NCBI GenBank assembly: GCA_039793395.1
Contig: JBAMLV010000020.1
Coordinates: 4,418-68,417, forward strand
Direction: 5' to 3'
Length of the DNA: 64,000 bases
DNA from: a bacterium
Lineage (GTDB): Bacteria; Hydrothermota; Tepidihabitantia; Tepidihabitantales; Tepidihabitantaceae
Part shown: in pieces, positions 30,588 through 45,821 of the stretch
How positions within the stretch are numbered: the stretch's first letter is position 1
Layout: every line of letters begins with the position of its first letter
Program-made: the position numbers and the translations under genes
Notes under the pieces: generated by a model
The model's input: the letters and a program-made list of their open reading frames with translations, nothing else
What the model was told of the DNA's origin: nothing
The model's database searches: none

Positions 30588-31065
30588 GATGTTTATTTGA
30601 TTTAATGGGAGGGCTTTGCTCTCCCATTTTTATTTTTTCCCGCATCCGGGCGATTAGCATTTCCGGCTGCGTGCACTGGCGGGCGAGTTGTTCAAACGGA
30701 CAGATGCCGGTGCCGGTCCGGTTGCTGATTTCGGCAACCAGCGTTTCGTAATAAAACGGGATTTGTGCTTCCCGGAGGCGGAGAGCAGCGTGAGCCGACA
30801 TCGTGCGGGCGATCACCTCCTTTACCCTCAGGTGGATGAAAATGGAGCCGGCACAGGTACCGACAATCCGGTCAACAACCGTGGCGCCGTTCAGTCCGGA
30901 AGGGAAAAGAGCGGTTAATTCCAGCAGCGGCTTAACGCCCGGTTCCCGGGAAACAAACAGAATCTTCCCGGATTTGAGTACAATCAGGCGGGCGCCTTTT
31001 CGGCCAAGCAGTTGAAGCAGGCTTTTTGCCCGAACCGGGCGGACCCGGGGTTTGTCCGCGGACAT
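30571..31065 (-). CDS. DUF1893 family protein
   Basis: GVKPLLEL, VVDRIVG, ISNRTGTGICPFEQ motifs. Confidence 0.75.
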   Translation of the reverse strand: MSADKPRVRPVRAKSLLQLLGRKGARLIVLKSGKILFVSREPGVKPLLELTALFPSGLNGATVVDRIVGTCAGSIFIHLRVKEVIARTMSAHAALRLREAQIPFYYETLVAEISNRTGTGICPFEQLARQCTQPEMLIARMREKIKMGEQSPPIKSNKHLSPQF

Positions 31066-31117: not shown

Positions 31118-31145
31118 TTGACAGCGGATGTTGAATTTGTATTTT
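31118..31145 (+). promoter_or_regulatory. Promoter for hydrogenase operon
   Basis: TTGACA (31118-31123), 16 nt, TATTTT (31140-31145), 7 nt, TTG 31153. Confidence 0.6.
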
Positions 31146-31152: not shown

Positions 31153-32166
31153 TTGGACACTTACTTCCTACCAAACGAGCAGCGCGGTTCCTGGCTTGCC
31201 CGACTGGCAGGTAAATTTGATGTTTTTTATCCGGGGGTGGTTGAGGAGCGGGTACACTGGCAGAAATACAACCCCTCAGATTTTCAGATTGAGCAGCTGG
31301 CGTTAAGGCAGATTCGTGCGGCGGAGCCGATCAAGCCTTTTCTTTTTGCCCCACGGGAACGGGTGGCATCATTCCCCGAACCGCTGGCGCCCGAACCGGA
31401 ACCGGTCCGGGTGCTTCTTTTTGGACTCAAGGGTTGTGATTTGCGCGGCCTCGCAGTTCATCAGAAGATGTTTCTGGAAGGTGAGTTTGCCGACCCGTTT
31501 TATGCCCGGCGGCGGCAAAACACCTATTTTATCTCTGCCGACTGTCCGGTACCGGAGAAGAGTTGCTTCTGCAATCTGCTGGGACTGAATCCGTTTGTGA
31601 CTGAGGGTGTGGATTTGAGCCTGACCGAATTGCCTGATGGCTGGTTGGTTGAGGTAATTTCGGAGCGGGGCCGGGAGCTGGTCGACAGTGAATTTAAGCC
31701 GGCGACCGAGGAGCAACTGCGCCGGCGCCAGGCACAACGGGACCAGGCGGTTCAGTTTTTAAAGGAGCAGAATCCTAAGCCCTTGAATCCGAATCTGGCG
31801 CAGGCAATTGCCGAACGGACCGGGGATACAAAATTCTGGGCCGAAGCCGCGGCAGGTTGTGTGGAGTGCTTTGGCTGTCTCACCACCTGCCCGACCTGCT
31901 TCTGCTTTCTGCTTTACGACCAGGGCAATGCCGAACAGTTTGAGCGCAGCAGGGTCTGGGATTTCTGCTATCTGCCAATGTATGCCCGGGTTGGCGGCGG
32001 TGCAAATCCGCGGCCGCGGTTTATCCAGCGGTTCATCAATCGGTTTCACTGTAAGTTTATGCACTTCAAGAACCAGAACGGCTTTTACGCCTGTTCCGGC
32101 TGCGGCCGGTGCTTCACCACCTGTATGGGTAAGATTGATATCCGCAACATTCTGGGGCAGTTATGA
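31153..32166 (+). CDS. 4Fe-4S dicluster protein, sulfhydrogenase beta subunit HydB / AsrA-like
   Basis: GLKGCDL, CPVPEKSCFC, CVECFGCLTTCPTCFCF, RFHCKF, CSGCGRCFTTCMGKIDI. Confidence 0.88.
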   Translation: MDTYFLPNEQRGSWLARLAGKFDVFYPGVVEERVHWQKYNPSDFQIEQLALRQIRAAEPIKPFLFAPRERVASFPEPLAPEPEPVRVLLFGLKGCDLRGLAVHQKMFLEGEFADPFYARRRQNTYFISADCPVPEKSCFCNLLGLNPFVTEGVDLSLTELPDGWLVEVISERGRELVDSEFKPATEEQLRRRQAQRDQAVQFLKEQNPKPLNPNLAQAIAERTGDTKFWAEAAAGCVECFGCLTTCPTCFCFLLYDQGNAEQFERSRVWDFCYLPMYARVGGGANPRPRFIQRFINRFHCKFMHFKNQNGFYACSGCGRCFTTCMGKIDIRNILGQL

Positions 32167-32978
32167 GCAATCCTTATCAGCCGGTTGTTACCAGAATCCT
32201 TAATGTCATTGAGGAAACCCCCAACATCCGGACCTTTGTTCTCAAGCCGGAAAAAGAGATTCCGTTTCTTGCCGGACAGTTTGTGGAACTGACCATTCCG
32301 GGATTTGGTGAGGCACCGTTTACCCCCTCATCTTCCCAGTTTCAGCGGGAGACCCTGGAGATGACGATTATGAGGGTGGGCAGGGCAACCTCGGCGCTTT
32401 TCACCCGGCAACCCGGTGATTTATTGGGCGTCCGTGGTCCATATGGCAAGCCCTATCCGCTGAAGGAGTTTGAGGGCCGGGATATATACATTGTTGGCGG
32501 CGGAGTTGGACTGGCACCCCTGCGTGCCCTGTTTCTGGCGCTGGTGCACGAGATTAAGAAATATGGCCGGATTTATCTCCGTTACGGTGCCCGGACTCCC
32601 AGGGATATCGTTTACAAGCAGCAGTTGAAGGAGTGGGAGAAAATCAATGGTGTGGACATTGACCTTTCGGTGGACAGTGCGACTGAGCCCTGGGAGCGGA
32701 AGGTGGGGGTGGTGACCTGTCTGATGGATGAAATTCCCTGCGATGTAAAGAAGAGCGTGGCGGTGGTGTGCGGGCCACCAATTATGATGAAGTTTGTCAC
32801 CAAAAGGCTGCTGGAAGCCGGGTTTCCGGGTAAGAACATCTATCTGTCAATGGAGATGAATATGTCCTGTGGGGTTGGTCAGTGCGGACACTGCCGGCTC
32901 GGGCCCTATTTTACCTGCAAGGATGGCCCGGTTCTCACCTGGGAGCAGATTAAGGACATTGAGGAGCCGTTCCTGTGA
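32163..32978 (+). CDS. FAD/NAD(P)-binding 2Fe-2S protein, sulfhydrogenase gamma subunit HydG / AsrB-like
   Basis: GQFVELT, GEAPFT, VRGPYG, GGGVGLAPLR, VCGPPIMM, MSCGVGQCGHC...CKDGPV. Confidence 0.9.
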   Translation: MSNPYQPVVTRILNVIEETPNIRTFVLKPEKEIPFLAGQFVELTIPGFGEAPFTPSSSQFQRETLEMTIMRVGRATSALFTRQPGDLLGVRGPYGKPYPLKEFEGRDIYIVGGGVGLAPLRALFLALVHEIKKYGRIYLRYGARTPRDIVYKQQLKEWEKINGVDIDLSVDSATEPWERKVGVVTCLMDEIPCDVKKSVAVVCGPPIMMKFVTKRLLEAGFPGKNIYLSMEMNMSCGVGQCGHCRLGPYFTCKDGPVLTWEQIKDIEEPFL

Positions 32979-34570
32979 AGACCGTCAGGAAATTTGTGTG
33001 CGACTTCTGTCTTAACGGGTGCAACATCGGGATTCTTTTTGACGGTTATCAGTACCGGATTGAGTATCTGACCGAGGAACCGCCCAATTACGGCCGGCTG
33101 TGTCCCAGGGGAAACAGTGCCAGTATCGTCATTGACCATCCGAAAAGGCTCTGCTATCCGCTCCTTGATGGCAAAGAGATAACCTGGCAGCAGGCGCTGA
33201 ATACGATTCAGCAGTGGCTGGATGAGTGTTCCGGCAGGGAACGGGCAGTTGTTTATAGCCGGGGGTTGAGTCCAGCAGAAGCGGCAACGGTTGCCGGTTT
33301 TGCCCGGCAGCTGGGAACGGAAAATCTGGTGTGCGGTTATCTGGAACCGGACAACTTTTTAGGTGTTCAGCTGGCAGGGGTGAGGAGGGCAAAACTGGAA
33401 GAGGTGCAGTCCGCCCGGGCAATCCTTTTGGTGGGTGATGTGTTCAGCGCTTCACCGGTGGCAGCAAAATTCATCCTTGACGCCCGGTATGCAGAAAGAA
33501 ATAGCCGGCTGGTGGTGATTGATTCCATCCGGACCAGGCAGTCTGGATTTGCCCAGCTGTTTCTGCTGGTGAAGCCCGGAACCGAATACCGGGCGCTGGC
33601 AGCAATTGCCGGTATCCTGGACCCGAAGCTGAATCTGGATGTTGACCGTTTTGCCGTTGAATGCGGGGTGGAGCGAAGCCGGCTGGAAGAGGCGGCGGCG
33701 ATTTTGAAATCCACGCCCGCAGGTCTGGTGGGCGCGGCTGCCAGTTTCGGCCGGGTTGCCAATCCCCTGCTCCACAGTTTGTGTGCCCAGCTGGTGGCAC
33801 TCAAGACCGACAAGCCCTTTGCCGGTTTTGCCGAGGCGCTGATTCCAAATGGAAGGCTAAGTTTCCAGCAGTTTCAGGAAAAGGTTGTTCAGGGGCAGAT
33901 TAAGATGATTTTCTGGTTTGGCGGGCTTTTCCCGTATAGCTATCCTGAAGTTTTCCCAGCGCTGAGTCAGGTTCGGTTTCGGGTAGCAACAACCATTTTC
34001 CGGTTGAGTTCACCCCTGCCCGGGCTGGTGCTGCCAGTGGTAAGTGAATTTGAGAAGTCCGGCAGCGGTGAAACTCTGTGGCGGCAGGTGAGCCGGGAGC
34101 CGGTTGTCAGACCGGTGAGCGGTTCAAGACTGATCAGTGAGATTATTCAAGGGATTACCGGCAGCACCGCTACCGAGTCCCTGAATGTGCCGGTGCCGGT
34201 TCAGGTTGATAAATTGCTGGAATGGTTAGCAGGTTCCCGCAAGCCGGAGCCGGTTTCCGGTTATCTATTGGTTGGCGAACGCCGGGCAATCGGCATCGGT
34301 GAGTTTTACGATTCAGAAGAAGAGATCACTGTTAATCCAGCGGATGCCCGGCAGCTCGGGGTGAAGGATGAGGAGCTGGTAACGGTGAAGAGCCGAACCG
34401 CCGAGGAGCAGTTCCGGGTGAAAGTTTCGGGTGCGGTACCGGCTGGTGTGCTGGTGGTCGGGGTTGACGCGCACCGGAACCGCCGGCTGTTTTCAGTAGA
34501 ATTTGACGAGCCGGGCGGCATTGCTACAATTCCACCGACCAAGGTTGAAGTATGGCGGACTCAGGGATAA
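32975..34570 (+). CDS. Molybdopterin-oxidoreductase-fold protein (NuoG C-half/Fdh alpha-like), apparently lacking the metal ligand
   Basis: CDFCLNGC...LCPRG 4Fe-4S motif, RLCYPL, ITWQQAL, LVVIDS, C-terminal VNPADARQLGVKDEELVTVKS domain; no C/U-H at the Fdh ligand position. Confidence 0.75.
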   Translation: MKTVRKFVCDFCLNGCNIGILFDGYQYRIEYLTEEPPNYGRLCPRGNSASIVIDHPKRLCYPLLDGKEITWQQALNTIQQWLDECSGRERAVVYSRGLSPAEAATVAGFARQLGTENLVCGYLEPDNFLGVQLAGVRRAKLEEVQSARAILLVGDVFSASPVAAKFILDARYAERNSRLVVIDSIRTRQSGFAQLFLLVKPGTEYRALAAIAGILDPKLNLDVDRFAVECGVERSRLEEAAAILKSTPAGLVGAAASFGRVANPLLHSLCAQLVALKTDKPFAGFAEALIPNGRLSFQQFQEKVVQGQIKMIFWFGGLFPYSYPEVFPALSQVRFRVATTIFRLSSPLPGLVLPVVSEFEKSGSGETLWRQVSREPVVRPVSGSRLISEIIQGITGSTATESLNVPVPVQVDKLLEWLAGSRKPEPVSGYLLVGERRAIGIGEFYDSEEEITVNPADARQLGVKDEELVTVKSRTAEEQFRVKVSGAVPAGVLVVGVDAHRNRRLFSVEFDEPGGIATIPPTKVEVWRTQG

Positions 34571-35046
34571 AGGTGCAGAGCCGGAAGCGGCTTTTTGTTC
34601 GGCTGGATTACTGTATTGGCTGCCGGTCGTGTGAGGCGGCATGCCGGAGCCGGTTCAAGGGTGAAGCCCGGGTCCGTTATGCCGAGGTGAATGAAACCAC
34701 ACTCATTCCCCTGCCCTGCCGGCACTGTGAGGAGCCGCTGTGTGCTGCTGCCTGTCCGTTTGAGGTTATTAGAAAGGATGAGCAGGGGGGGATTGTCTAT
34801 CAGTCCAGTGTTCACTGTGTCGGCTGTCGCTCCTGTATCCTTGCCTGTCCGTTCGGGGTGCTGGACAAAGAGCTGTTGCGCCGGATGGCACAGAAGTGCA
34901 ATCTGTGTCAGGACCGGCCTGAGGGCCCGCGCTGTGCTGCCAGCTGTCCGACCGGGGCGCTTTGCTTCATTGACGAGGGTGAAATTGCGGAGCAGCAGGT
35001 GGGTAAGCGGACAACCGCCCGGCTGCCGTTCTGGAGGCGGGTATGA
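34552..35046 (+). CDS. 4x[4Fe-4S] ferredoxin-like subunit (HycB/HydN-like)
   Basis: CIGCRSCEAAC, CRHCEEPLCAAACP, CVGCRSCILACP, KCNLC...PRCAASCPTGAL. Confidence 0.9.
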   Translation: MADSGIKVQSRKRLFVRLDYCIGCRSCEAACRSRFKGEARVRYAEVNETTLIPLPCRHCEEPLCAAACPFEVIRKDEQGGIVYQSSVHCVGCRSCILACPFGVLDKELLRRMAQKCNLCQDRPEGPRCAASCPTGALCFIDEGEIAEQQVGKRTTARLPFWRRV

Positions 35047-35999
35047 GCACTTGGCTTACGGGCTGGCGGCTGGTGCTGGGTTTTATTTTCACGATGGTGA
35101 CGGTGCCGATTGCCGGGCTGGTGCTTACCTGGGTGGACCGGTTCGTTTCTGCCCGGGTTCAGTGGCGCAAGGGTCCACCATTCTATCAGCCCTTTGCCGA
35201 CCTGCTCAAACTACTTCTGAAGCAGACGGTGGTGCCGGAGGGTGCGGTCCGGTCGGTGTTTCTATTTGCCCCGCTGGTTGGACTGGCAGGAATGATTTTG
35301 GTGGGAATGATGCTCTTTTACAGCAATTTTAATGTGATTGTCAGTCAGCAGAGTTCATTTGTCGGCGATATCATCGTGCTGCTTTATCTCTTTGCCCTGG
35401 TCCCGCTTGCCTTCATCGTTGGTGCCTCGGCATCAAGAAATCCGGTTGCCGCGGTGGGAGCGTCCCGGGAGATGACCCTTTATCTCGGTTACGAACTGCC
35501 GTTCGTGCTGGCGCTTTTGGTGCCGGTTGTCAAGGTGGCACAGCGCTGGGGTGTTGCCAGCGGGTTGCGCCTCGGCGGCATCATTGCCTATCAGCAGCAG
35601 TTCGGACCGGTGCTTTATTCCATTTCCGGCGTGATTGCCGCGATTATCATCCTGTTTGTCATTCAGGCAAAACTGGGCTATGTGCCGTTTGACATTCCCG
35701 AAGCCGAGCAGGAGATAATGTCCGGAGTAATTGTTGAATATTCTGGCGCACCGCTGGCGGCATTTCGTCTCACCCGGGCGATGATGTTTGTGCTCCTGCC
35801 CCTGTTCCTGATTACCATTCTCTGGGGTGGAATTCGGGACTGGTGGGCAGTGCTGAAATTGCTGCTGATTGTGGTGCTCGTCGTCCTGATGAAGAATACC
35901 AATCCGCGGTTGACCGTTCATCAGGCGTTGAAGTTTTTCTGGTTTATTCTGACCCCGCTGGGAATCGTGGGATTGATTCTGGCGTTCATTGGCTTATGA
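35043..35999 (+). CDS. mbhM: Membrane subunit NuoH/HycD/MbhM family
   Basis: RVQWRKGPPFYQPFADLLKLL, VPFDIPEAEQEIMSGVIVEYSG, KNTNPRLT. Confidence 0.88.
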   Translation: MSTWLTGWRLVLGFIFTMVTVPIAGLVLTWVDRFVSARVQWRKGPPFYQPFADLLKLLLKQTVVPEGAVRSVFLFAPLVGLAGMILVGMMLFYSNFNVIVSQQSSFVGDIIVLLYLFALVPLAFIVGASASRNPVAAVGASREMTLYLGYELPFVLALLVPVVKVAQRWGVASGLRLGGIIAYQQQFGPVLYSISGVIAAIIILFVIQAKLGYVPFDIPEAEQEIMSGVIVEYSGAPLAAFRLTRAMMFVLLPLFLITILWGGIRDWWAVLKLLLIVVLVVLMKNTNPRLTVHQALKFFWFILTPLGIVGLILAFIGL

Positions 36000-36412
36000 A
36001 GGATATTAGGCTCTGGGGACTGAAGAAATCGCCCTGGGTTTACCATGTGGCGGCAGCATCCTGTAACAACTGCGACATTGAGATTCTGGAACTCTTGACC
36101 CCGCGCTACGATGTTGAGCGGTTCGGAATTGTTTTAGTCGGCTCACCCCGGCATGCCGATGCGCTGCTGGTAACCGGGGTAATTAATCGGAAGTCACTGC
36201 CCCGGGTGCTTGAGGTTTATGAGCAGACGCCGAAGCCCTGTCTGGTGATTGCGGTCGGCACCTGTGCCTGTAACTGTCACATCTTCCGGAACTCCTACAA
36301 TGCGGTCGGTCCTTATGACCGGCACATCCCGGTTCATGCCTATATCCCGGGCTGTCCACCCAAACCCGAGGCGATGATTATGGGTGTGGTAAAGGCGTTG
36401 AGCAAACTATGA
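35996..36412 (+). CDS. mbhJ: Hydrogenase small subunit NuoB/MbhJ family
   Basis: SCNNCDIE, YDVERFG, SPRHADALLVTG, AVGTCA, IPGCPPKPE. ATG 35996 overlaps the preceding stop; ORF-track start 35843 is too far upstream. Confidence 0.92.
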   Translation: MKDIRLWGLKKSPWVYHVAAASCNNCDIEILELLTPRYDVERFGIVLVGSPRHADALLVTGVINRKSLPRVLEVYEQTPKPCLVIAVGTCACNCHIFRNSYNAVGPYDRHIPVHAYIPGCPPKPEAMIMGVVKALSKL

Positions 36413-36864
36413 GGAGCGATTCGCTAAGTAAGTTACAGGAAAGATTTCCTCAGGCAGAGGTGTTTGAGAAAAACCCCCGGCGGCTTTATATAAAAGTGCC
36501 GAAAGAGCAGATAACCCCGGTGGCAAAATTTCTGCACAACGAACAGGGAATGCGGCTTTCCATCTGCACCGGCATAGATACCCGGGACGGCTTTGAGGTT
36601 CTTTATCACTTTTCCGAAGATGCTACCGGTGTGATTTACACAATCAAGGTGCTGGTGCCCAAGGATGACCCGAAGGTTGATTCGCTCGGGTCGTGGTTTC
36701 CGGCGGCACAATGGATTGAACGGGAGATGCACGAACTGCTGGGAATAGAATTTGTGGGTCATCCGAACCTGATTCCTTTATTGACATCGGACAGCGACTG
36801 GGAAGCGGACCGGCATCCTTTGCGCCGGGACTATGAGAAAAGGAATGAAGCCCATGAGCGATGA
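36409..36864 (+). CDS. mbhK: NuoC/MbhK family subunit
   Basis: RLSICTGID, FEVLYHF, WIEREMHELLGIEFVGHP, HPLRRD. Confidence 0.9.
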   Translation: MRSDSLSKLQERFPQAEVFEKNPRRLYIKVPKEQITPVAKFLHNEQGMRLSICTGIDTRDGFEVLYHFSEDATGVIYTIKVLVPKDDPKVDSLGSWFPAAQWIEREMHELLGIEFVGHPNLIPLLTSDSDWEADRHPLRRDYEKRNEAHER

Positions 36865-38044
36865 GGTAAAGAACCGCCGGATTGTGCCGATTGGTCCGTA
36901 TCACCCGCTTCAGGAAGAGCCGGAGTTCTTTAAACTGATTGTTGAAGGTGAGCAGGTGGTGGATTTAGAGATTAATATCGGTTATAACCACCGGGGTCAT
37001 GAGTTCATCTCTCCGGAACTGACCTATGAGCAGGTGCCGTTTCTGGTGGAGCGGATCTGTGGCATCTGTTCTAACTCCCATCCGCTGGCAGCGGTGCTGG
37101 CGATTGAGGACTGTGCCGGTATTAAGCCACCACCCCGGGCAAATTACATCCGTTCAATCATCCATGAACTGGAGCGGATTCACTCCCACCTTTTGTGGCT
37201 GGGGCTTGCCGGACACTTCATCGGTTACAATACGGTCTGGATGTGGGCGTGGCGGTATCGGGAGCATATCCTGCAGGTTTTTGAGATGATTACCGGCAAC
37301 CGAAACCATTATGGTGCAAACAAACCGGGCGGGGTGCGCTGGGATATCAAGCCGGAGCAGGTGCCTGAAATTCGTGCTGCTCTGGACCTGGTGGAGCAGA
37401 AGACACTGATGCTCACCAAGGCGATTCTTGACGACCCGGTGACGAGGGCACGGCTGGAAGGGGTGGGGATTCTCACCCGGGAGCAGGCAATCGCCTGGTC
37501 GGTGGTTGGTCCAACCGCGCGGGCATCCGGGGTGGATATTGATGTCCGCCGGGATGACCCGCACTGCGCCTATGACCAGGTGCCCTGGAGTGTGATTGTT
37601 CTACCTGAAGGCGATGTGCTTGCCAAGGCAAAGGTAAGATTGCTGGAGATTTTTGAGTCAATTAAAATCATCCGGGGTTGTCTGGACCGGCTGCCGGACG
37701 GCCCGATTGAACTGCGGATAGATGAGATTCCGCCGGGCGAAGGGATTGGCAGAACCGAAGCACCGCGGGGTGAGGTCTTTCATTACATCCGTTCGGACGG
37801 AACGAACCGGCCGCTCCGGCACAAAATTCGGGCACCCAGTTATATGAATATCGCCTCCAATGTGGTGGCGGTTAAGGGCGGGTCAATTGCCGATGCGGCG
37901 TTGACCCTGGCTGCGGTTGACCCTTGCTACTGCTGCACCGAACGGATGGCGGCATTTGAAGACGGCAAGCTGAAGTATTCGGGCCAGGAACTGCTACGGC
38001 TTTCCTGGGAAAAGACCGAAAAGCTCCGGGAGCGGCTCAAATGA
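36854..38044 (+). CDS. mbhL: Group 4 [NiFe] hydrogenase large subunit (MbhL-like)
   Basis: IGPYHP, HRGHE, L1 motif ERICGIC, L2 motif DPCYCCTER, EAPRGE, RAPSYMN; 32-aa C-terminal extension after the L2 Arg. Confidence 0.93.
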   Translation: MSDEVKNRRIVPIGPYHPLQEEPEFFKLIVEGEQVVDLEINIGYNHRGHEFISPELTYEQVPFLVERICGICSNSHPLAAVLAIEDCAGIKPPPRANYIRSIIHELERIHSHLLWLGLAGHFIGYNTVWMWAWRYREHILQVFEMITGNRNHYGANKPGGVRWDIKPEQVPEIRAALDLVEQKTLMLTKAILDDPVTRARLEGVGILTREQAIAWSVVGPTARASGVDIDVRRDDPHCAYDQVPWSVIVLPEGDVLAKAKVRLLEIFESIKIIRGCLDRLPDGPIELRIDEIPPGEGIGRTEAPRGEVFHYIRSDGTNRPLRHKIRAPSYMNIASNVVAVKGGSIADAALTLAAVDPCYCCTERMAAFEDGKLKYSGQELLRLSWEKTEKLRERLK

Positions 38045-39252
38045 GTTTCGGCAACTGGTTGACTTTTGCCGGCGGTAAACTGGAGGTTTTCCTGACCCTG
38101 GTTTTCGGTTTTATCGGTCTGATGGCGCTGGTTTACTCCCTTGCCCGGGTGAAAGGTACGGCGCGGGAAAAGGCAGAATACTATATTTTCCTGCTGGTGC
38201 TCATCGGTGCCGGCATTGCCCTGGTCTTTGCCCGGGAAATACTTTTGATTTTTGTGATGTGGGAACTGGCAACAATTGCCCTCTGGCGCCTGGTCTCCTA
38301 CTTCCGGGATAAAGAGGCGGTTGATGCCGGCCGGTGGGCGTTTTATATCAATTTCGCCGCGGCCGCGGTTATGCTTGTCGGTCTGGTAATGATCTGGCTG
38401 GAATTCGGCACCTGGAATCTGGACCGGCTTGCCGGCCGGAGCCTGCCGCTGTTGCCGGCGCTCTTGGTGCTGGTAGGGATTGTTGCCAAATCCGCAGCGC
38501 TACCATTATATATCTGGCTCCCCCGGGCATATCGGCAGGCACCGGCAGCGGTTTGTGCATTGCTTTCCGGTGTGGCGGAAAATCTGGGGCTGGTGCTGTT
38601 TCTGAAACTTTTTGTCCTGACGGTGCAGGTTCCGGATTTATTTTATCTCATCAGTGCGATTGTTGCGCTCAGTTCCAGTCTGGTGGCGGGTGGGGTGGCA
38701 ATTAATTCCAGAACCATCCGGGAGACGCTTGCCTATTCCACGGTCAGCCAGCTGGGATTTATTCTGCTGGCATTCTCGGTGCGCGGTTACTATGGCATCA
38801 CCAGTGGTCTGCTTTACATTCTGGCACATGCGGTCGCCAAATCCGGGTTGTTCTTTGCAACCGGGGCGGTTGAGGATGGAGCCGGCACCGGTGAACTGGA
38901 ACGGCTTGGCGGCTGGGCAAAGGTATCTCCGGCACTCGCCGGTGCAACCGGGGTGCTGGCACTTTCAATTATGGGGCTGCCGCCGACCCTTGGATTTTTT
39001 GCCAAACTGGGGGTGGTGCTGGCTGCGGTGCGCAGTAACTTGCTGTACGGTATTGGGGCGCTGGTTGCGGCGTTGTTCACGGTGCTTTATCTGAGCCGTT
39101 TTTACACCCGGGTTTTTCTGGGTGCAAATGGAAGCCAAAATGCCCGGGTTTCAAAAATTGCCATTACCCTGGTGATAATTATGGCGGTGGTCTCCATCGG
39201 CGCCGGTCTTTTGTGGTTTGTGCCGGTCGGGTTTGTTGGCGGAGGCTGGTGA
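38041..39252 (+). CDS. Proton-conducting antiporter-like subunit (short MrpD/NuoN-like)
   Basis: FVMWELATI, AKSAALPLYIWLPRAY, TLAYSTVSQLG, HAVAKSGLF, GLPPTLGFFAK. Confidence 0.85.
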   Translation: MSFGNWLTFAGGKLEVFLTLVFGFIGLMALVYSLARVKGTAREKAEYYIFLLVLIGAGIALVFAREILLIFVMWELATIALWRLVSYFRDKEAVDAGRWAFYINFAAAAVMLVGLVMIWLEFGTWNLDRLAGRSLPLLPALLVLVGIVAKSAALPLYIWLPRAYRQAPAAVCALLSGVAENLGLVLFLKLFVLTVQVPDLFYLISAIVALSSSLVAGGVAINSRTIRETLAYSTVSQLGFILLAFSVRGYYGITSGLLYILAHAVAKSGLFFATGAVEDGAGTGELERLGGWAKVSPALAGATGVLALSIMGLPPTLGFFAKLGVVLAAVRSNLLYGIGALVAALFTVLYLSRFYTRVFLGANGSQNARVSKIAITLVIIMAVVSIGAGLLWFVPVGFVGGGW

Positions 39253-41180
39253 TGCTGGCAAATTCGTTTGTGCTGATGATACTCTTGCCGGCTGTAACCG
39301 GACTATTGGGCTATCTGATTGGCAGGTTAAGGAATGAGTTCAGTTTTATCGGCACGGTTGCTTCGCTCTATTATGCGCTCCGGCTGTTTCTTTTGTCCCG
39401 GGGCGGCGAACCGTTGAGTCTGACCCTGATGGAAATTGCGGGCATTCCGCTCGGTTTCCGGCTGGACCAACTTTCCGGGTTCATCCTTCTGTTTGTCAGT
39501 ATCTTTACCACGCTGATACTTTTCTATTCATTCCGGTATATGCGTGGCCGGGAAGGAACCCGGGGTTATTACCTTTATTCACTTCTGATTCTTGCCTTTG
39601 CCAACGGTGTGGTGCTCGCTACCAATCTGGTTACGCTCTTTTTCTTCTGGGGCGGTTTGCTCCTGTTGCTCTATGCCATTCTGCTAATCGGTCGGGGTGA
39701 AACCTTCAGAACTGCGCGCAAGGCGCTGGTCATCGTCGGGCTATCCGATTTTGCAATGCTTTTAGGGCTGGTGCTGCTGATTGTCCGGACCTATGTGCCG
39801 GGCGGCTGGATTGAACTGGCACCCCGGGTACCACTTCCACTCTATGACCCGGCGCTGGTTGCCGGTTTTGTCCTCATCACCGCGGGTGCGCTTGCCAAAG
39901 CGGGCGCGATGCCACTGCACACCTGGATTCCAACTGCGGCTGAAACCGCCCCCGCGCCGGTAATGGCACTGATACCGGCTTCACTGGACAAACTGTTAGG
40001 CATTTATCTTTTAATCCGGCTCACGGTTTATATGTTTGACATCGCCAGCAATATGGTGCTGCGCAATGTGTTGATGGCAGTCGGTGCGGGGACGATCCTC
40101 TTTGCGGTGATGATGGCGCTAATTCAGAAGCGGATGATGAAACTGCTGGCTTTCCATGCGGTATCGCAGGTGGGGTATATGGTCCTGGGAATTGGCACCG
40201 GAATCCCGGTCGGAATTGCGGGTGGACTGTTCCATATGCTCAACAATGCGATTTACAAGACCGGGCTGTTCCTTGCCGGTGGTTCGGTTGAGCACTGGGC
40301 AAAGACTGATGAACTGGAGAAACTGGGTGGGGTGGGCAGGCAGATGCCATTAACATTTGTCTCCTTCTTTATCTGTGCAATGGCGATTGCCGGGGTGCCG
40401 CCCTTGAACGGCTTTTTCTCCAAGTGGATGGTTTATCAGGGAGTGCTGGGTGTTGGCATTGAGGGGAACCGGCTGTTTCCAGTTTTTCTGGTGGCAGCGA
40501 TGTTTGGTAGTGTGCTGACTCTGGCGTCGTTTTTAAAGCTGATACACGGACTGTTTCTCGGGCAGCGTCCCCAAACACTGGCGCGGGTCCGGGAGGTAAG
40601 CATGACGATGTGGCTGCCGCCGTTTCTGCTTGCACTTGCCTGTGTCGCATTTGGTGTTTTCGCTTATCAGTTGCCGCTGCGCGGGCTCATCATCCCCGGG
40701 CTCAGGTTTTACGACCTGAATCTCACCGGGGTCTGGAGCCCGATTCCGGCAACGCTCTTGCTGCTGGCAGCGCTCGGTCTGGGCGCGATAATTTATTTTG
40801 CGGGCACGGCGGTCCGGCCGGTTACCGGCAGGACATTTGTCGGTGGCGAGCGGATTGGTTATAATGAGGAGAGCCGGGTGCCGGGAACCGCATTCTACTC
40901 CTCGGTCAAGCAGATGCCGATTGTCGGTGACCTGCTGGTTTTTGGTGAACGCGGGGCATTTGACCTCTATAACTGGCTGATAGGGATTTTCCGGGTGGTT
41001 GGCTATGTCTTCCGCGAAGGGGTTGACCGGGCGTTGCAGGCGCTGACCGAATTTATTGGCAAACTGGTTTATTACTTCGGGCTCGGGCTCTCTCGGATTC
41101 ATACCGGTAATTTGCCCCTTTATCTCTCGTGGGTATTCTTAGGTGCGGTGATTTTTTATCTGCTGCTGTTTTTGAGGTAG
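39252..41180 (+). CDS. Antiporter-like subunit MrpA/NuoL-like with C-terminal extension
   Basis: RLDQLS, KAGAMPLHTWIP, LLAFHAVSQVGY, KTGLFL, GVPPLNGFFSKW, IHTGNLPLYL. ATG 39252 overlaps prior stop, after GGAGG. Confidence 0.88.
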   Translation: MLANSFVLMILLPAVTGLLGYLIGRLRNEFSFIGTVASLYYALRLFLLSRGGEPLSLTLMEIAGIPLGFRLDQLSGFILLFVSIFTTLILFYSFRYMRGREGTRGYYLYSLLILAFANGVVLATNLVTLFFFWGGLLLLLYAILLIGRGETFRTARKALVIVGLSDFAMLLGLVLLIVRTYVPGGWIELAPRVPLPLYDPALVAGFVLITAGALAKAGAMPLHTWIPTAAETAPAPVMALIPASLDKLLGIYLLIRLTVYMFDIASNMVLRNVLMAVGAGTILFAVMMALIQKRMMKLLAFHAVSQVGYMVLGIGTGIPVGIAGGLFHMLNNAIYKTGLFLAGGSVEHWAKTDELEKLGGVGRQMPLTFVSFFICAMAIAGVPPLNGFFSKWMVYQGVLGVGIEGNRLFPVFLVAAMFGSVLTLASFLKLIHGLFLGQRPQTLARVREVSMTMWLPPFLLALACVAFGVFAYQLPLRGLIIPGLRFYDLNLTGVWSPIPATLLLLAALGLGAIIYFAGTAVRPVTGRTFVGGERIGYNEESRVPGTAFYSSVKQMPIVGDLLVFGERGAFDLYNWLIGIFRVVGYVFREGVDRALQALTEFIGKLVYYFGLGLSRIHTGNLPLYLSWVFLGAVIFYLLLFLR

Positions 41181-41183
41181 TTT

Positions 41184-41729
41184 ATGATTGAACTTTATCT
41201 TCTGCTGGCGGTGATGCTGGCGGCGGCGCTGGTTGCCAGCGAGACCAGTAACCTGTTGGCGGCGGCGGTTGCCCTGGGACTGGTCGGCTTCAGTGTGGCG
41301 ATTATGTTCATCCTGGTTCAGGCGCCAGACCTGGCAATAGTGCAGATTGTGGTGGAGACACTGACCGTGGTTTTCTTTACCGCGGTCATCCTCCGGACGA
41401 CCGACATTGACACCACGGTTACTCAGGGGTTGAAGATGGAAACGGCGATGTTCATTGCCGCTTTTCTGGCGTTCGGCGGACTGTTTCTGGCGTTGATTAT
41501 CGGCGTGCTTCAGGAACTGCCGCGCTTTGGCGAACCGGTGATGCGTATTGCCCAGCAGTATGTGCAACTCGGACTTGAGCGGACCGGGGCGGCGAATATC
41601 GTTTCCGCAATCATTCTTGACTTCCGCGGCTATGATACATTAGGTGAGGCGACGGTGCTCTTTACCGCCGTGGTCGGGGTGCTGACGGTGGTGCGCCTTG
41701 CCAGCCGGAAAAAGCCAGGGGAGTTTTAA
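41184..41729 (+). CDS. MbhD/MbhE-like (DUF4040 + MnhB-type) fusion subunit
   Basis: QAPDLAIVQIVV, GAANIVSAIILDFRGYDTLGEATVL. Confidence 0.85.
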   Translation: MIELYLLLAVMLAAALVASETSNLLAAAVALGLVGFSVAIMFILVQAPDLAIVQIVVETLTVVFFTAVILRTTDIDTTVTQGLKMETAMFIAAFLAFGGLFLALIIGVLQELPRFGEPVMRIAQQYVQLGLERTGAANIVSAIILDFRGYDTLGEATVLFTAVVGVLTVVRLASRKKPGEF

Positions 41730-41730
41730 G

Positions 41731-42171
41731 ATGCGCGGGATGTCGCTGATTGTCCGGGTGATGACCGGTCTGCTTGCCGGGATACTGATGCTCTACGGCG
41801 GTTACATCATTCTCCACGGTCATCTGACTCCCGGGGGTGGTTTTGCCGGCGGGGTGCTGGTGGCGGCGGCACTGATTCTGGTTTCGCTGGCACACGGGTC
41901 GGTGGAGCAGGTGGAGCGCCGGGAGTATATCCTCTCGTCAGTCTTTGAGAGTTCAGGCGGGTTGCTGTTTCTCGGTCTGGCGCTCGCCGGCTACATTGCT
42001 GCGGACTGTTTCTTCCGGAATGCCGGACTGTTTTTCATCGGTCAGCCCTTACAACTGGTAAGCGGTGGACTGATTCCGCTGGCAAACATCGCCATCGGCT
42101 TGAAAGTCGGTGCCGGGCTGTTTGCCATCTTTCTGGCACTCGGTGCCTCAAGATTTGTGATGAAGGAGTAG
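41731..42171 (+). CDS. mnhB: Na+/H+ antiporter subunit B (MnhB/MbhF)
   Basis: HGHLTPGGGFAGG, NIAIGLKV. Confidence 0.88.
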   Translation: MRGMSLIVRVMTGLLAGILMLYGGYIILHGHLTPGGGFAGGVLVAAALILVSLAHGSVEQVERREYILSSVFESSGGLLFLGLALAGYIAADCFFRNAGLFFIGQPLQLVSGGLIPLANIAIGLKVGAGLFAIFLALGASRFVMKE

Positions 42172-42173
42172 CG

Positions 42174-42527
42174 ATGATTCCCTATGTTGCCTGTGTGCTT
42201 TTGTTTCTTATCGGTCTATATGTGGTTATTTCCAAGCGGAATCTGATTAAGATTGTCATTGGATTTTCTCTGATTGAATATGCGGTCAACCTGTTCTTTG
42301 CCCTGGTCGGTTTTAAAAAGGGGGCGCTGGCACCAATCATCACCACCCTGGAGCAGGTGCGGATGGGTGTGAACCGCAACTTTGTTGACCCGGTGCCCCA
42401 GGCGCTGGTGCTGACCGCAATCGTCATCGGTCTGTCCACGACCGCGCTGATGCTTTCCCTCGCAATGCGGCTTTATGAAAAGTATAAAACCTTTGACATT
42501 TCAGAAATCAGACGGCTGAAAGGATAG
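42174..42527 (+). CDS. mnhC: Na+/H+ antiporter subunit C (MnhC/MbhG)
   Basis: RNLIKIVIG, DPVPQALVLTAIVIG. Confidence 0.92.
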   Translation: MIPYVACVLLFLIGLYVVISKRNLIKIVIGFSLIEYAVNLFFALVGFKKGALAPIITTLEQVRMGVNRNFVDPVPQALVLTAIVIGLSTTALMLSLAMRLYEKYKTFDISEIRRLKG

Positions 42528-42529
42528 CG

Positions 42530-44035
42530 ATGGAAGGCAGGATATTACCGCTGTTTGTCGCCATTCCGCTTGCCGGTGCATTTCTGGTACCGCTTTTGTC
42601 CAAACTGTGGTCCAGATTTTCCGACCTGATTGCCAGCATCGCCAGTGCACTGCTGCTCGGGATTTCAATTTACAGCTGGTTGATAATCAGTGCCGCCGGT
42701 GTGCCGCTGCATTACTGGGTCGGTGGCTGGCGTCTTATTGGCATTGCGATGTGGTTTGATGCCCTGACCGCGCTCGTGGTCTTCATCATTAATATTGTCG
42801 GTTTCTGTGCCACCATTTATTCCATCCGATATCTTGACCGCTACACCTCGGGCCGGTGGAAGTTTTTCACCCTGCTGCTTTTGCTCATCGCCGGACTGAA
42901 CGGACTGGCAATTTCCGGTGACCTGTTTAATATGTTCGTATTCATTGAGATTTCGGCGATTGCCAGTTATGCGCTGGTGGCATTTGGCACCGAAGAGGAG
43001 GAGGTGGAGGCGGCGTTTAAGTATATGGTGCTGGGTGAGGTCGGGGGAGCAATTCTTTTGTTTGGCATTGCGCTCCTTTATGCCCGGGCATCGACGCTCA
43101 ATCTCGCCCATCTTTCCCAGGTGCTTGCGGGTATGGGCAGGACACCATTCTACTGGTTTGTGATTGCCACCCTGCTGGTCGGCTTTGCCATTAAGATGGG
43201 GATGGAGCCGTTCCATGCCTGGCTGGCTGATGCCCATTTTTCAGCACCGGCGCCGATTTCAGCAATGCTCTCCGGCGTCTTCATCAAGATTACCGGTGTT
43301 TATGGGATGTGCCGGTTGATGTTCAATGTATTCGGGGTTTCCCGGCTGGAGACACCGGCATTCTTCAACCTGTTAATCGCCTTCGGTGCGGTCTCAATGG
43401 TGCTGGGCGGACTGCTGGCTTACACCCAGAGCGATTACAAGCGGCTGCTCGCCTATTCCAGTATCAGTCAGATTGGCTATCTCCTGGTGGCGCTGGGGAT
43501 TGGTAATTTCTGGGGTATAGCGGGCGCACTGTTTCACATTATTGCGCATGCGCTTGCTAAGGGCACCCTGTTTCTGGCAGCCGGTTCGGTTGAGCGTCAG
43601 GCTGGTACCCGCAACCTGGAGCAGCTCCGGGGTCTGGAGCGGGTGATGCCGGCCACCACCTGGTCGCACATCATCGCTTCCTTCTCAATGGCGGGGTTAC
43701 CACCGTTTGCCGGCTTCTTCTCCAAGTTGTTCATCATCATCGGCGCCCTAACAGCCCGGATGTACTGGCTGGCTTTTCTTGCGGCCCTGTTCTCGGCGGT
43801 GACCCTCGGTTATTTGACCAAAGTGGTCAATCTGTCTTTTTTTGCCCGCAAGGATGAGCCGCCAACTACTGCCCGGGAGGCACCGGCACTGATGGTGCTG
43901 GCAACCCTGCTTTTGGTGGTGCTGGTGCTGGCAGCGGGTCTGGGGTTCAAGGGGGTGCTTGACCATCTGGTCGGACCGGCGGCAAAAGTGCTTTTGAACG
44001 GGCTGGAATATGCCCGTCTGGTTCTGGGAGGATAG
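42530..44035 (+). CDS. mnhD: Na+/H+ antiporter subunit D (MnhD/MbhH)
   Basis: GDLFNMFVFIEI, AAFKYMV, PFHAWLADAH, KRLLAYSSISQIGY, GLPPFAGFFSK. Confidence 0.92.
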   Translation: MEGRILPLFVAIPLAGAFLVPLLSKLWSRFSDLIASIASALLLGISIYSWLIISAAGVPLHYWVGGWRLIGIAMWFDALTALVVFIINIVGFCATIYSIRYLDRYTSGRWKFFTLLLLLIAGLNGLAISGDLFNMFVFIEISAIASYALVAFGTEEEEVEAAFKYMVLGEVGGAILLFGIALLYARASTLNLAHLSQVLAGMGRTPFYWFVIATLLVGFAIKMGMEPFHAWLADAHFSAPAPISAMLSGVFIKITGVYGMCRLMFNVFGVSRLETPAFFNLLIAFGAVSMVLGGLLAYTQSDYKRLLAYSSISQIGYLLVALGIGNFWGIAGALFHIIAHALAKGTLFLAAGSVERQAGTRNLEQLRGLERVMPATTWSHIIASFSMAGLPPFAGFFSKLFIIIGALTARMYWLAFLAALFSAVTLGYLTKVVNLSFFARKDEPPTTAREAPALMVLATLLLVVLVLAAGLGFKGVLDHLVGPAAKVLLNGLEYARLVLGG

Positions 44036-44524
44036 GTGGCACGCCGATTTGCCTATTTTCTTGCCGGACTTTTGGTCTGGTTGCTCTTAGGCTGGACCCT
44101 GAACTATCAGGAGGTGATTGTCGGTGCGGCGGTGGCGCTGATTGCCGCGGGGATGTTTGGCGGTTATTTACCGCTGGAACCGAAAAAACTGCTCAATCCC
44201 GCCCGCTGGTTCTGGCTGCTGGTCTACATTCCGGTATTCGGCTGGCAGTGTCTCAAGGCAAATATTGATGTTGCGCTGCGGGTGCTCTCGCCGGGTTTGA
44301 ACCTGAAGCCGGGAATTGTCAAAATCAAAACCGGTCTGAAAAGTGACATTGCCAAGGTTTTTCTTGCGAACTCAATTACGATGACCCCGGGAACCCTGAC
44401 CGTGGAGATCAAGGACGACACCCTTTACATTCACTGGATTGAAATCCGCAGTGATGACCCAGAGGAGATGGCAAAAATGATTAAAGGACCGTTTGAATTC
44501 TTTCTGAAGCGGATTTTTGATTAA
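44036..44524 (+). CDS. mnhE: Na+/H+ antiporter subunit E (MnhE/MbhA)
   Basis: ANIDVA, KPGIVKI, LANSITMTPGTLT, LYIHWI. Confidence 0.92.
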   Translation: MARRFAYFLAGLLVWLLLGWTLNYQEVIVGAAVALIAAGMFGGYLPLEPKKLLNPARWFWLLVYIPVFGWQCLKANIDVALRVLSPGLNLKPGIVKIKTGLKSDIAKVFLANSITMTPGTLTVEIKDDTLYIHWIEIRSDDPEEMAKMIKGPFEFFLKRIFD

Positions 44525-44533
44525 GGAGGCGGA

Positions 44534-44785
44534 ATGGTGCCAATTATTGTATTGGTTCCGGCGGCGCTGTTCTGCCTGTATCGGGCGCTGGTTGGACCTT
44601 CAATTGCCGACCGGGCGATTGCGGTGGATATGATGGGTGTGGTTTTTTCGGCAATCACCGCGCTGGTCGCACTCAAATTCAGGCTCAGCTATCTGCTGGA
44701 CATTGCAATTGCGCTGGCGGTAATTTCCTTTATCGGTGCGCTGGCGCTGGCGAAGTTTCTTGAGAAAAGGAGCCTTGATGATTAG
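44534..44785 (+). CDS. mnhF: Na+/H+ antiporter subunit F (MnhF/MbhB)
   Basis: GPSIADRAIAVD, LDIAIALAVISFIG. Confidence 0.9.
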   Translation: MVPIIVLVPAALFCLYRALVGPSIADRAIAVDMMGVVFSAITALVALKFRLSYLLDIAIALAVISFIGALALAKFLEKRSLDD

Positions 44786-45149
44786 CGTGCTGGCGCTGAT
44801 TTTTCTGTGGCTGGGGGTTGCCTTTGTGCTGCTCGGGGCCCTGGGACTGGCAAGATTCCCAGACCTCTACAACCGGATGCAGGCCGCGACCAAATGTGTT
44901 ACCCTTGGAGTATGCGGAATTATGATTGGCATCTTTTTGCGCTCGGGTTTCAATTCCCTTGGTATCAAGGCGCTCATCTGTGCCCTTTTCATCCTTTTCA
45001 CCGTGCCCGTTTCCAGCCACGCCCTGGTCCGGGGTTCGCTGATCGCCGGGGTTAAACTCTGGCGGGGCACGGTCAAAGACGAGTTTACGGCTGACCGGGG
45101 TGGTGCATCAATCATTGAAAGCAATACCGGCAGCGGGGAGGAGCGATGA
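44778..45149 (+). CDS. mnhG: Na+/H+ antiporter subunit G (MnhG/MbhC)
   Basis: GLARFPDLYNRMQAATK, PVSSHAL; ATG 44778 after AGGAG. Confidence 0.9.
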   Translation: MISVLALIFLWLGVAFVLLGALGLARFPDLYNRMQAATKCVTLGVCGIMIGIFLRSGFNSLGIKALICALFILFTVPVSSHALVRGSLIAGVKLWRGTVKDEFTADRGGASIIESNTGSGEER

Positions 45150-45757
45150 GGTTGCCATTACCAAAAATCCGGGAACTGGCGGAGGCGGTGCGGGCGGTGG
45201 TCAAAGGGCCGTTTACCACCAGATTTCCGAAAAAGGTAGATTCAGTCCATCCGAACTTCCGGGGTATCCTCAAATTTCGGGATGAGCTGTGTATCTGCTG
45301 TGGTGCCTGCTCTCAGGTGTGTCCAACCGATGCCCGGGAATTGATTCTTGACCGGCAGAAAGGGGTGATGCGGATTGTCCATCATGCGGACCGCTGCATC
45401 TACTGCGCCCAGTGTGTCAAAGCCTGTCCCACCCAGGCAATCTATCACACCCCGGAGTTTGACCTTTCCCGCACCGAGCGCGGCGGCTGGGATACCTTTG
45501 TGGAAAAGGAGCTTGTCTGCTGTGAAATGTGTGGCGAGCCATTTGCCACCAGGGCGCAGCTGCTGCATATTGCCCATAAAGTGGGCGATTTAGTGAATGC
45601 CAATCCGACCCTGCTGTTAACCCTTTATCAGCAGCTGGGGGTGGCGGTCCCGGAAACCGCACCGGCAACAGTCCTGCCCTACCGTTCGGGCACGATGCGC
45701 ATCCTCTGTCCGGACTGCCGGCGCAAGGTCTATATGACCGAACAGTGGGGCTATTGA
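45146..45757 (+). CDS. mbhN: 2x[4Fe-4S] subunit NuoI/HycF/MbhN family
   Basis: TTRFP, FRG, CICCGACSQVCP, CIYCAQCVKACP, extra CEMC...CPDC pair. Confidence 0.88.
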   Translation: MRLPLPKIRELAEAVRAVVKGPFTTRFPKKVDSVHPNFRGILKFRDELCICCGACSQVCPTDARELILDRQKGVMRIVHHADRCIYCAQCVKACPTQAIYHTPEFDLSRTERGGWDTFVEKELVCCEMCGEPFATRAQLLHIAHKVGDLVNANPTLLLTLYQQLGVAVPETAPATVLPYRSGTMRILCPDCRRKVYMTEQWGY

Positions 45758-45793: not shown

Positions 45794-45821
45794 TTGAAAA
45801 CCGGTATTTATTTATTATAAT
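45794..45821 (+). promoter_or_regulatory. Promoter for WG-repeat gene
   Basis: TTGAAA, 16 nt, TATAAT; AAGGAGG SD downstream. Confidence 0.65.

Follow-up and report, generated by a model that had tools for sequence, protein, structure and literature searches.

A WOR-3 member of the Hun family as a candidate ion-coupled NAD(P)H:H+ oxidoreductase built on an Mrp-linked group 4 [NiFe] hydrogenase

We analysed a 64-kb stretch of contig JBAMLV010000020.1 (assembly GCA_039793395.1; the whole stretch is called the window), of which positions 31153-45757 hold an operon for an Mrp-linked group 4 [NiFe] hydrogenase of the Hun type. The same gene set has been described by Matheus Carnevali et al. (2019; PMC6349859) as an 'enigmatic' group 4 hydrogenase of Saganbacteria RX5A, in which Mrp-like subunits are joined by asrA/asrB-like genes, a cooF-like gene and a molybdopterin protein that could not be classified; relatives were noted in Zixibacteria and Omnitrophica, and an oxidoreductase module with a role like that of NuoE/F was suggested for those subunits. 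Glass et al. (2021; bioRxiv 10.1101/536078) named the complex Hun, a 16-subunit hydrogenase-Na+/H+ antiporter supercomplex, and listed it in Atribacteria, Firmicutes, Omnitrophica, Elusimicrobia, Bacteroidetes and cultured Kosmotoga. Their description includes the CGIC...CYCC motif and an occasional molybdopterin protein between HunB and HunC, and places the enzyme on a distant branch of HydDB group 4g. Bird et al. (PMC6469976) named NADH as a possible donor, while studies of metagenome-assembled genomes (MAGs) from Antarctic lakes called the Mrp-linked group 4g enzymes of Omnitrophota, Cloacimonadota and Auribacterota ferredoxin-dependent membrane-bound hydrogenases (Mbh).

On its gene content we assign the operon in the window to the Hun family as a WOR-3 member, a variant with a molybdopterin-fold insert and one additional antiporter-like subunit. 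It shares with the published Hun the AsrA/AsrB-like HunAB, the 4Fe-4S protein HunC, the NuoH/B/C-like subunits, a CGIC...CYCC large subunit, the Mrp-like HunH-O and the terminal HunP, in the same order of gene types, but has 18 genes instead of 16, the extras being the molybdopterin-fold protein (FdhL) and an antiporter-like subunit that is apparently truncated at its N-terminus. The preliminary description of the window had proposed a new respiratory complex. Novelty must be given up, since the architecture had been described in Saganbacteria RX5A and named Hun, with its CYCC motif and optional molybdopterin protein; what is added here is comparative evidence on the core parts and a sharper hypothesis, not a new architecture. 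The structural reading of the locus proved accurate: all 18 genes lie on the forward strand in one tightly coupled unit with overlaps or short gaps throughout, and their domain content matches the Pfam and NCBIfam calls. No hydA, hydD or asrC, whose absence had likewise been noted, and no hyp or hycI gene was found among window open reading frames (ORFs) of at least 150 amino acids (aa), nearly all of them scanned or with public Pfam calls, in a search that covered the 64-kb window only; a NIR_SIR-type protein (siroheme AsrC-like) was not found in the window either. The 531-aa FdhL and the entire gene order recur at 99-100% identity on contigs of the candidate division WOR-3 MAG GCA_049972635.1 (JBMFKG010000004.1), and the operon DNA is present in metagenome runs from hot springs; the host is a hot-spring WOR-3 bacterium. 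All matching runs were DNA runs of hot-spring metagenomes, with no RNA runs among the matches.

The large subunit, HunG, carries both NiFe-binding motifs, RICGICSNSH and DPCYCC, which marks it as a genuine [NiFe] hydrogenase and not as an Mbx/Mbs- or Nuo-type relative. Conservation of cofactor sites was counted over 43-80 homologues per subunit. Cys72, Cys75, Cys361 and Cys364 of HunG are invariant and Cys363 of the CYCC motif is kept in 99% (80 homologues), and Cys23, Cys26, Cys90 and Cys120 of the small subunit HunE are invariant among its homologues. The best solved relatives of HunG, MbhL (6cfw_L, 267 bits) and HycE (7z0s_E, 258 bits), are about equally close. HunC has its closest solved structures in HycB3 of the hydrogen-dependent CO2 reductase (HDCR) and HycB of Escherichia coli formate hydrogenlyase; each of its 16 cysteines, a number sufficient for four [4Fe-4S] clusters, is kept in 98-100% of 64 homologues. 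The NuoI-like HunP scored 59.7 bits with HycF (7z0s_F) versus 46.3 bits with MbhN (6cfw_N), and in 43 homologues its eight cluster cysteines are invariant, as are Cys126, Cys129, Cys188 and Cys191. These last four form two CxxC pairs in a C-terminal extension (residues ~120-203), for which the Pyrococcus furiosus MbhN (139 aa) is too short and which could hold a zinc ribbon or an additional metal centre. The peripheral arm would thus be laid out like that of formate hydrogenlyase, would sit on a membrane arm of Mrp/Mbh type and would bear a diaphorase pair of soluble-hydrogenase type at its far end. The P. furiosus membrane-bound hydrogenase (MBH; group 4d, 6CFW) has in common with it the Mrp-derived membrane arm (equivalents of MbhA-H), the MbhM/J/K/L/N core and a true NiFe site. 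It has 14 subunits (MbhA-N) with a single antiporter-like subunit, however, and takes ferredoxin directly at MbhN, whereas the window operon adds HunA, HunB, FdhL and HunC before the MbhM-like gene as well as two antiporter-like subunits, and its NuoI-like subunit is nearer to HycF.

Beta and gamma subunits of the HunA-HunB kind normally serve soluble sulfhydrogenases and AsrABC. Both proteins are full-length homologues of the corresponding subunits of the group 3b P. furiosus sulfhydrogenase I (9NEZ) or of AsrA/AsrB and carry all cofactor motifs: residues 6-330 of HunA align with the beta subunit (9nez_B; expect value (E) 3.4e-42) and residues 3-263 of HunB with the gamma subunit (9nez_C; E 1.1e-48). 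They differ from the group 3b and AsrABC systems in being attached to a membrane-bound group 4 enzyme, with no alpha or delta subunit and no siroheme AsrC in the operon or window. HunA scored 169 bits with the NCBIfam model ShyB, 158 with HydB and 109 with AsrA, every one under its equivalog cut-off; the NCBIfam scores of the pair lie far under such cut-offs (169 vs 690 and 174 vs 650), and the AsrB model likewise stayed under its own. Fifteen of the 16 cysteines of HunA are invariant (60 homologues) and are laid out as a four-cysteine N-terminal group, two CxxCxxCxxxC motifs and three more cysteines that are present in the sulfhydrogenase beta subunit too. In HunB (63 homologues) the FAD-side motifs GEAPFTPSS and GxRGPxG, the nucleotide-side motifs GGGVGxAPLR and VCGPPxMMKF, the YGARTPxD motif and the [2Fe-2S] ligands Cys236, Cys241, Cys244 and Cys252 are all invariant. 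The 60-63 homologues that keep these motifs come from WOR-3, Latescibacterota, Stahlbacteria, Omnitrophota, Planctomycetota, Clostridia and Endomicrobia. YGARTPRD of HunB aligned to TARYGKD of the gamma subunit of sulfhydrogenase I, which is NADPH-dependent; in view of 2'-phosphate sites of the FNR type this may hint weakly that HunB binds NADPH; the preference for NADH or NADPH can only be guessed.

The preliminary description had proposed a survey of this gene order across GTDB. We scanned one genome per GTDB species with two peptide patterns from the large subunit, which gave at least 599 matches, at least 575 of them confirmed by tblastn, and compared the ORFs of the best 80 of these at least 575 loci (large subunit 62-92% identical to the window protein; MAGs of the lineages just named) with the 18 window proteins. 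Fifty-six loci were informative, with at least 6.2 kb upstream of the large subunit. In 54 of them, from at least six named lineages, hunA-hunB lies directly upstream on the same strand, followed by hunC and the NuoH/B/C-like genes. The molybdopterin-fold gene stands between hunB and hunC in 32 of the 54 (18 WOR-3, 1 Latescibacterota, 2 Stahlbacteria, 11 unclassified) and is absent from the other 22, where hunB leads directly to hunC (14 Omnitrophota, 3 Planctomycetota, 3 Clostridia, 1 Endomicrobia, 1 unclassified). The conserved cross-phylum core is HunA-HunB-HunC with the hydrogenase and Mrp modules. The linkage of hunAB to the hydrogenase over several phyla argues that HunAB belong to the membrane complex and not to a soluble partner. 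Together with the full-length homology to the sulfhydrogenase I subunits and the invariant motifs, it also somewhat strengthens the earlier proposal of an NAD(P)H module on an Mrp-linked [NiFe] hydrogenase. Complete WOR-3 chromosomes found in this work are CP070680.1, CP070686.1, CP070705.1 and CP070802.1. The 'NuoG/Fdh-like' subunit, by contrast, had been drawn as an element of the core electron wire, a place that it loses by being missing in 22 of the 54 loci.

The same data bear on the alternative that HunAB work outside the membrane complex, with a soluble group 3b HydAD or an AsrC as their partner elsewhere, or that the complex has a sulfur- or polysulfide-reducing activity. We regard this as very improbable. 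The customary place of beta-gamma pairs in soluble enzymes speaks for it, as does the confinement of the search for hydA, hydD and asrC to the 64-kb window, and Bird et al. (PMC6469976) considered reduction of sulfur compounds possible as well. Yet start/stop overlaps run from hunA through to the large-subunit gene, the order hunA-hunB-(fdhL)-hunC-hydrogenase is kept in 54 of 56 loci of several phyla, the window yielded none of the three partner genes, and metatranscriptomes of Atribacteria show joint transcription of the oxidoreductase and the hydrogenase (PMC6469976).

The two exceptions to the conserved order were L028 (WOR-3 bin1061, CP070834.1), where a truncated hunC lies behind genes for 2-hydroxyglutaryl-CoA dehydratase-like, URO-D-like and BcrAD-type ATPase proteins, and L042, a reduced K-L-N cluster with only NuoC-like, large-subunit and NuoI-like genes beside genes for LarC-type nickel insertion and an AIR-carboxylase-like protein. 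Among loci of the Clostridia type, L069 has a 925-aa Fdh/NuoG-like gene a few kilobases upstream of hunA, and L082 and L084 each have an upstream Fdh-like match (23-25% identity) and a second HydB-like gene, which suggests that other input modules are encoded beside Hun in Firmicutes.

FdhL has 119 homologues, nearly all from WOR-3, in which its N-terminal cysteines C9, C12, C16 and C43 are conserved. An AlphaFold2 model from 110 sequences (pLDDT 95.3, pTM 0.94) was matched by Foldseek, at query-normalised TM scores of 0.76-0.81, to formate dehydrogenases, Nap and the FdhF inside formate hydrogenlyase, and at 0.70 to NuoG/Nqo3 of complex I. Profile alignments give no sign of the catalytic residues of formate dehydrogenases. 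The selenocysteine (Sec)-His pair of the F420-dependent formate dehydrogenase 9t1s_L faces Glu-Pro in FdhL; Sec140 of E. coli FdhF (sequence from the K-12 genome) lies within a four-residue insertion that the FdhL family does not have, and its His141 faces Tyr. FdhF residues 316-377, with Arg333 in the RGQNNVQG loop, match just 18 profile positions of the family and are thus largely deleted, and FdhL is ~180 residues shorter than FdhF. A MAFFT pairing of the FdhF Sec (written as Cys) with Cys120 of FdhL was rejected as an artefact, because Cys120 is replaced by Ser or Ala in several close homologues and two hidden Markov model alignments disagree with it.

We conclude from these alignments that FdhL is not a formate dehydrogenase. 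It is probably accessory and non-catalytic, in line with its dispensability in the 22 loci that go directly from hunB to hunC, and we regard it as a lineage-specific accessory of WOR-3-type operons that has lost the formate dehydrogenase active site. Where the large subunits are equally divergent (66-67%), the identity of HunC to its window counterpart is 45-47% if the molybdopterin-fold gene is present vs 33-34% if it is not, which is weakly consistent with FdhL docking on HunC as FdhF docks on HycB. The formate hydrogenlyase FHL-1 (7Z0S/7Z0T) and the Thermococcus Fdh-Mfh-Mnh system (group 4a/4b) resemble the window operon in their molybdopterin-fold, HycB-like four-cluster, HycF-like, small and large subunits, and the Thermococcus system also in its Mrp module. 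Here, however, the molybdopterin-fold subunit is dispensable and has neither the Sec/Cys-His dyad nor the Arg333 loop, and formate hydrogenlyases have no flavoprotein/Fe-S dimer as input. A formate hydrogenlyase reading of the operon was ruled out on the missing dyad and loop and the optional nature of the subunit.

The best explanation of this architecture is that Hun would be an Mrp-linked, complex-I-like group 4 [NiFe] hydrogenase with a group 3b beta-gamma diaphorase where a formate dehydrogenase would sit. On balance we think that it works as a reversible, ion-coupled NAD(P)H:H+ oxidoreductase. From the gene content, cofactor motifs, homologies, synteny and the lost formate dehydrogenase site we infer docking, donor, direction and coupling ion as follows. 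NAD(P)H would reduce the FAD of HunB, and the electrons would move on from its [2Fe-2S] cluster through about three [4Fe-4S] clusters in HunA, four in HunC and two in HunP to the proximal cluster of the small subunit and then to the NiFe site, where protons would be reduced to H2. By analogy, HunC would cap the position that corresponds to the ferredoxin-docking site on P. furiosus MbhN, and FdhL would most likely serve as a scaffold or, docked on HunC, as one more [4Fe-4S] relay, much as the NuoG relic domain does in complex I. Coupling of the H2 step to movement of H+ or Na+ may fall to the Mrp module together with the NuoH-like anchor and the three antiporter-like subunits.

The potentials of NAD(P)H and H2 (-320 and -414 mV) are near to each other, so the enzyme should be reversible; to evolve H2 from NAD(P)H it would depend on an ion gradient, a reduced NADPH pool or very low H2. 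At very low H2 or a high NADPH/NADP+ ratio, H2 could be evolved with export of ions; at higher H2 the ion gradient would be spent to drive electrons of NAD(P)H onto protons. Uptake of H2 to make NAD(P)H is also conceivable and could drive ion export. The direction would be set by the environment.

Several points weigh against this reading. Under standard conditions we calculate from the textbook potentials that formation of H2 from NAD(P)H is endergonic by ~18 kJ/mol, which makes three antiporter-like modules seem too many for a forward pump. The conserved motifs would report an intact nucleotide site and not the identity of the physiological partner, and FdhL keeps several pterin-binding-like motifs (GDxF...P, IDSIRT, PGTE), with which a cofactor is possible, and many invariant polar residues, among them Glu124, Asp155, Glu204, Glu360 and Arg503. 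We found no biochemical or structural study of any Hun complex in the literature. The published donor is ferredoxin, proposed by Glass et al. (bioRxiv 10.1101/536078), and HydDB lists group 4g as putatively ferredoxin-coupled by default, as opposed to the NAD(P)H favoured here.

A ferredoxin-dependent Hun is thus a serious rival, if in our estimate an unlikely one. Reduced ferredoxin would then feed HunA, HunB or HunC, H2 would be evolved with Na+/H+ export as in Mbh, and the flavin/NAD(P) domain of HunB would be a relay or a regulatory side door. Electron transfer from ferredoxin to H2 yields energy enough for a pump with several antiporters, HunA and HunC offer many exposed clusters at which ferredoxin could bind, and an Rnf complex is encoded directly downstream in the same genome, so that machinery for balancing ferredoxin and NAD is present. 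On the other hand, NAD(P) and FAD motifs that are invariant across phyla are hard to explain without use of a pyridine nucleotide, the closest solved relative of HunB is the gamma subunit of an NADPH-dependent sulfhydrogenase, and Mbh and Ech, which do use ferredoxin, do without such a module. The published argument takes AsrAB to be fed by ferredoxin, yet AsrB is an FNR-type NAD-binding protein by Pfam. With an intact and invariant FNR-type nucleotide site in a HunB that is always co-encoded, NAD(P)(H) as substrate is the simplest explanation, and for this reason we favour the NAD(P)H:H+ oxidoreductase.

The features retained by FdhL allow a further reading, in which the WOR-3-type FdhL is an active Mo/W enzyme that feeds the hydrogenase and, through HunAB, NAD(P)+, much as a formate hydrogenlyase oxidises its substrate. 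Its full fold is predicted with high confidence, the [4Fe-4S] cysteines, pterin-site-like motifs and polar residues are conserved, its gene takes the position of fdhF-like genes in formate-dependent Mrp-linked hydrogenases, and Thermococcus onnurineus has a soluble NADP-dependent Fdh3 with Fe-S and NAD(P) subunits. Against these stand the catalytic position without Sec/Cys-His, the deleted Arg333 loop, the shortening relative to FdhF, the absence of FdhL from 22 of 54 otherwise identical operons, and the finding of no molybdenum cofactor genes among the scanned window ORFs. We consider a catalytic FdhL quite doubtful; like a soluble partner or sulfur reduction, it is less likely than the ferredoxin model.

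In its overall logic Hun resembles complex I (NuoA-N), having a pyridine-nucleotide flavoprotein, an Fe-S wire, the NuoB/C/D/H/I core, antiporter-like pumps and, in the window operon, a molybdopterin-fold relic subunit with one [4Fe-4S] motif (cf. the C-terminal domain of NuoG and cluster N7). It differs in its diaphorase, an FNR/PyrK-type FAD protein with an AsrA-like protein in place of NuoE/F with flavin mononucleotide (FMN), in the acceptor, which would be H+ at the NiFe site and not quinone, and in a membrane arm of Mrp/Mbh type. NuoE and NuoF are absent from the operon, and the sole protein with a Complex1_51K domain in the window is RnfC. A step from FdhF to the NuoG relic is presumed on the route that led from formate hydrogenlyase to complex I. 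We tentatively suggest, as a possibility short of a favoured conclusion, that Hun is an ion-translocating, H2-evolving or H2-consuming counterpart of complex I assembled from different parts, with the group 3b beta-gamma diaphorase for NuoEF and a degenerate Fdh-fold subunit fixed in WOR-3 that independently repeats this step.

How anaerobes shed the electrons of NAD(P)H as H2 is a key question in the energetics of fermentation and syntrophy; the known routes are soluble group 3 enzymes and electron-confurcating [FeFe] hydrogenases. A membrane enzyme coupling NAD(P)H and H2 by way of an ion gradient would add a third. Were Hun such an enzyme, fermenters of many uncultured phyla could re-oxidise NAD(P)H by forming H2, aided by the ion gradient and without electron confurcation, and Hun would be a natural complex I analogue with a different front end. 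The large subunit has relatives in the at least 575 species-level genomes of the survey, dominant in poorly known phyla (WOR-3, Omnitrophota, Atribacterota and others). In current metabolic reconstructions such loci go under 'Mbh, ferredoxin-coupled', 'complex I' or 'sulfite reductase', and fixing the donor would correct these models.

Table 1. Genes of the hun operon and flanking signals in the window
Feature	Coordinates	Strand	Basis
HunA, sulfhydrogenase-beta/AsrA-like Fe-S subunit, 337 aa	31153..32166	+	Pfam Fer4_22
HunB, sulfhydrogenase-gamma/AsrB-like flavoprotein with FAD, NAD(P) and [2Fe-2S] sites, 271 aa	32163..32978	+	Pfam FAD_binding_6, NAD_binding_1, DHODB_Fe-S_bind
FdhL, Mo/W-bisPGD-fold protein with N-terminal [4Fe-4S] motif, 531 aa	32975..34570	+	Pfam Molybdop_Fe4S4, Molybdopterin, Molydop_binding, all weak
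HunC, HycB/CooF-like 4x[4Fe-4S] connector, 164 aa	34552..35046	+	Pfam Fer4_11
HunD, NuoH/MbhM-like membrane anchor	35043..35999	+	Pfam NADHdh, E 6.7e-57
HunE, NuoB/MbhJ-like small subunit, proximal [4Fe-4S], 138 aa	35996..36412	+	Pfam Oxidored_q6; public gene call
HunF, NuoC/MbhK-like subunit	36409..36864	+	Pfam Complex1_30kDa
HunG, [NiFe] hydrogenase large subunit	36845..38044	+	Pfam Complex1_49kDa, NiFeSe_Hases
Antiporter-like subunit 1, 403 aa	38041..39252	+	Pfam Proton_antipo_M
Antiporter-like subunit 2, NuoL/MrpA/HyfB-like, 642 aa	39252..41180	+	Pfam Proton_antipo_N, Proton_antipo_M; NCBIfam matches
MbhD/MbhE fusion, MrpA C-terminal-like	41184..41729	+	Pfam MbhD, MbhE
MnhB/MbhF-like subunit, 146 aa	41731..42171	+	Pfam MnhB; public gene call
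MnhC/NuoK/MbhG-like subunit	42174..42527	+	Pfam Oxidored_q2
Antiporter-like subunit 3, MrpD/MbhH-like, 501 aa	42530..44035	+	Pfam Proton_antipo_M, E 1.8e-72
MnhE/MbhA-like subunit	44036..44524	+	Pfam MNHE
MnhF/MbhB-like subunit	44534..44785	+	Pfam MrpF_PhaF
MnhG/MbhC-like subunit, true start maybe ATG 44778	44736..45149	+	Pfam PhaG_MnhG_YufB
HunP, NuoI/HycF/MbhN-like 2x[4Fe-4S] subunit with C-terminal extension	45146..45757	+	Pfam Fer4_7
Promoter-like site just 5' of hunA	31118..31145	+	TTGACA-16-TATTTT, 10/12 matches; consensus match only
Terminator-like hairpin, strong	30604-30628		ends preceding + strand gene
Promoter-like site of next gene downstream of operon	45794-45821		

Neighbouring genes of the operon overlap by 1-20 nucleotides or are at most 9 nucleotides apart, and the first eight, from hunA to the large subunit, are joined by start/stop overlaps. 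The MnhF/MnhG pair stands apart with an overlap of 50 nucleotides from the GTG start, or 8 if the internal ATG is used. Four starts were corrected from public gene calls on the identical public contig: those of the small subunit (35996), the large subunit (36845, 4 codons downstream of a 403-aa reading), the second antiporter-like subunit (39252) and MnhB (41731). The membrane arm has three antiporter-like subunits in all (Table 1). NCBIfam alignments of the first start at about position 65-80 of the profile, so that the ~65 residues with which MrpD/NuoN-type proteins usually begin appear to be lacking. Many WOR-3-type loci, though not all, have this subunit; it is missing from most Omnitrophota-type loci, and in most loci of that type an unassigned ORF of ~205 aa fills its position behind the large subunit.

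The hun operon is followed after 880 bp by a convergent, complete Rnf operon (rnfC, D, G, E, A, B; 46637-51816, reverse strand); the organism can thus interconvert ferredoxin and NADH at the membrane. A conserved linkage of hun and Rnf was rejected, the adjacency being kept in the closest relative only (L019, among the best 80 loci). Divergent from hunA is a gene of the TM1506 family (PF08973; 30571-31065, reverse strand), with the same arrangement in the WOR-3 loci L019, L010, L011 and L016 (42-44% identity). Farther away, 2496-12373 holds a type IV pilus/type II secretion-like cluster with four pilin-like genes with N-methyl motifs, a PilM-PilN fusion, PilO, a secretin, a T2SSE ATPase and a prepilin peptidase. 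The stretches 18086-23560, 27962-29725 and 59456-61441 encode large secreted proteins whose Por_Secre_tail sorting domains are typical of type IX secretion cargo; one of them is an 1824-aa C25 (gingipain-family) peptidase with CARDB and Kelch repeats, a cargo that would suit a protein-degrading lifestyle. The sole recorded domain of a 515-aa protein at 26047-27594 is Thy1 (ThyX), and its length, which we take to be about twice that of ThyX, suggests a duplicated or fused form.

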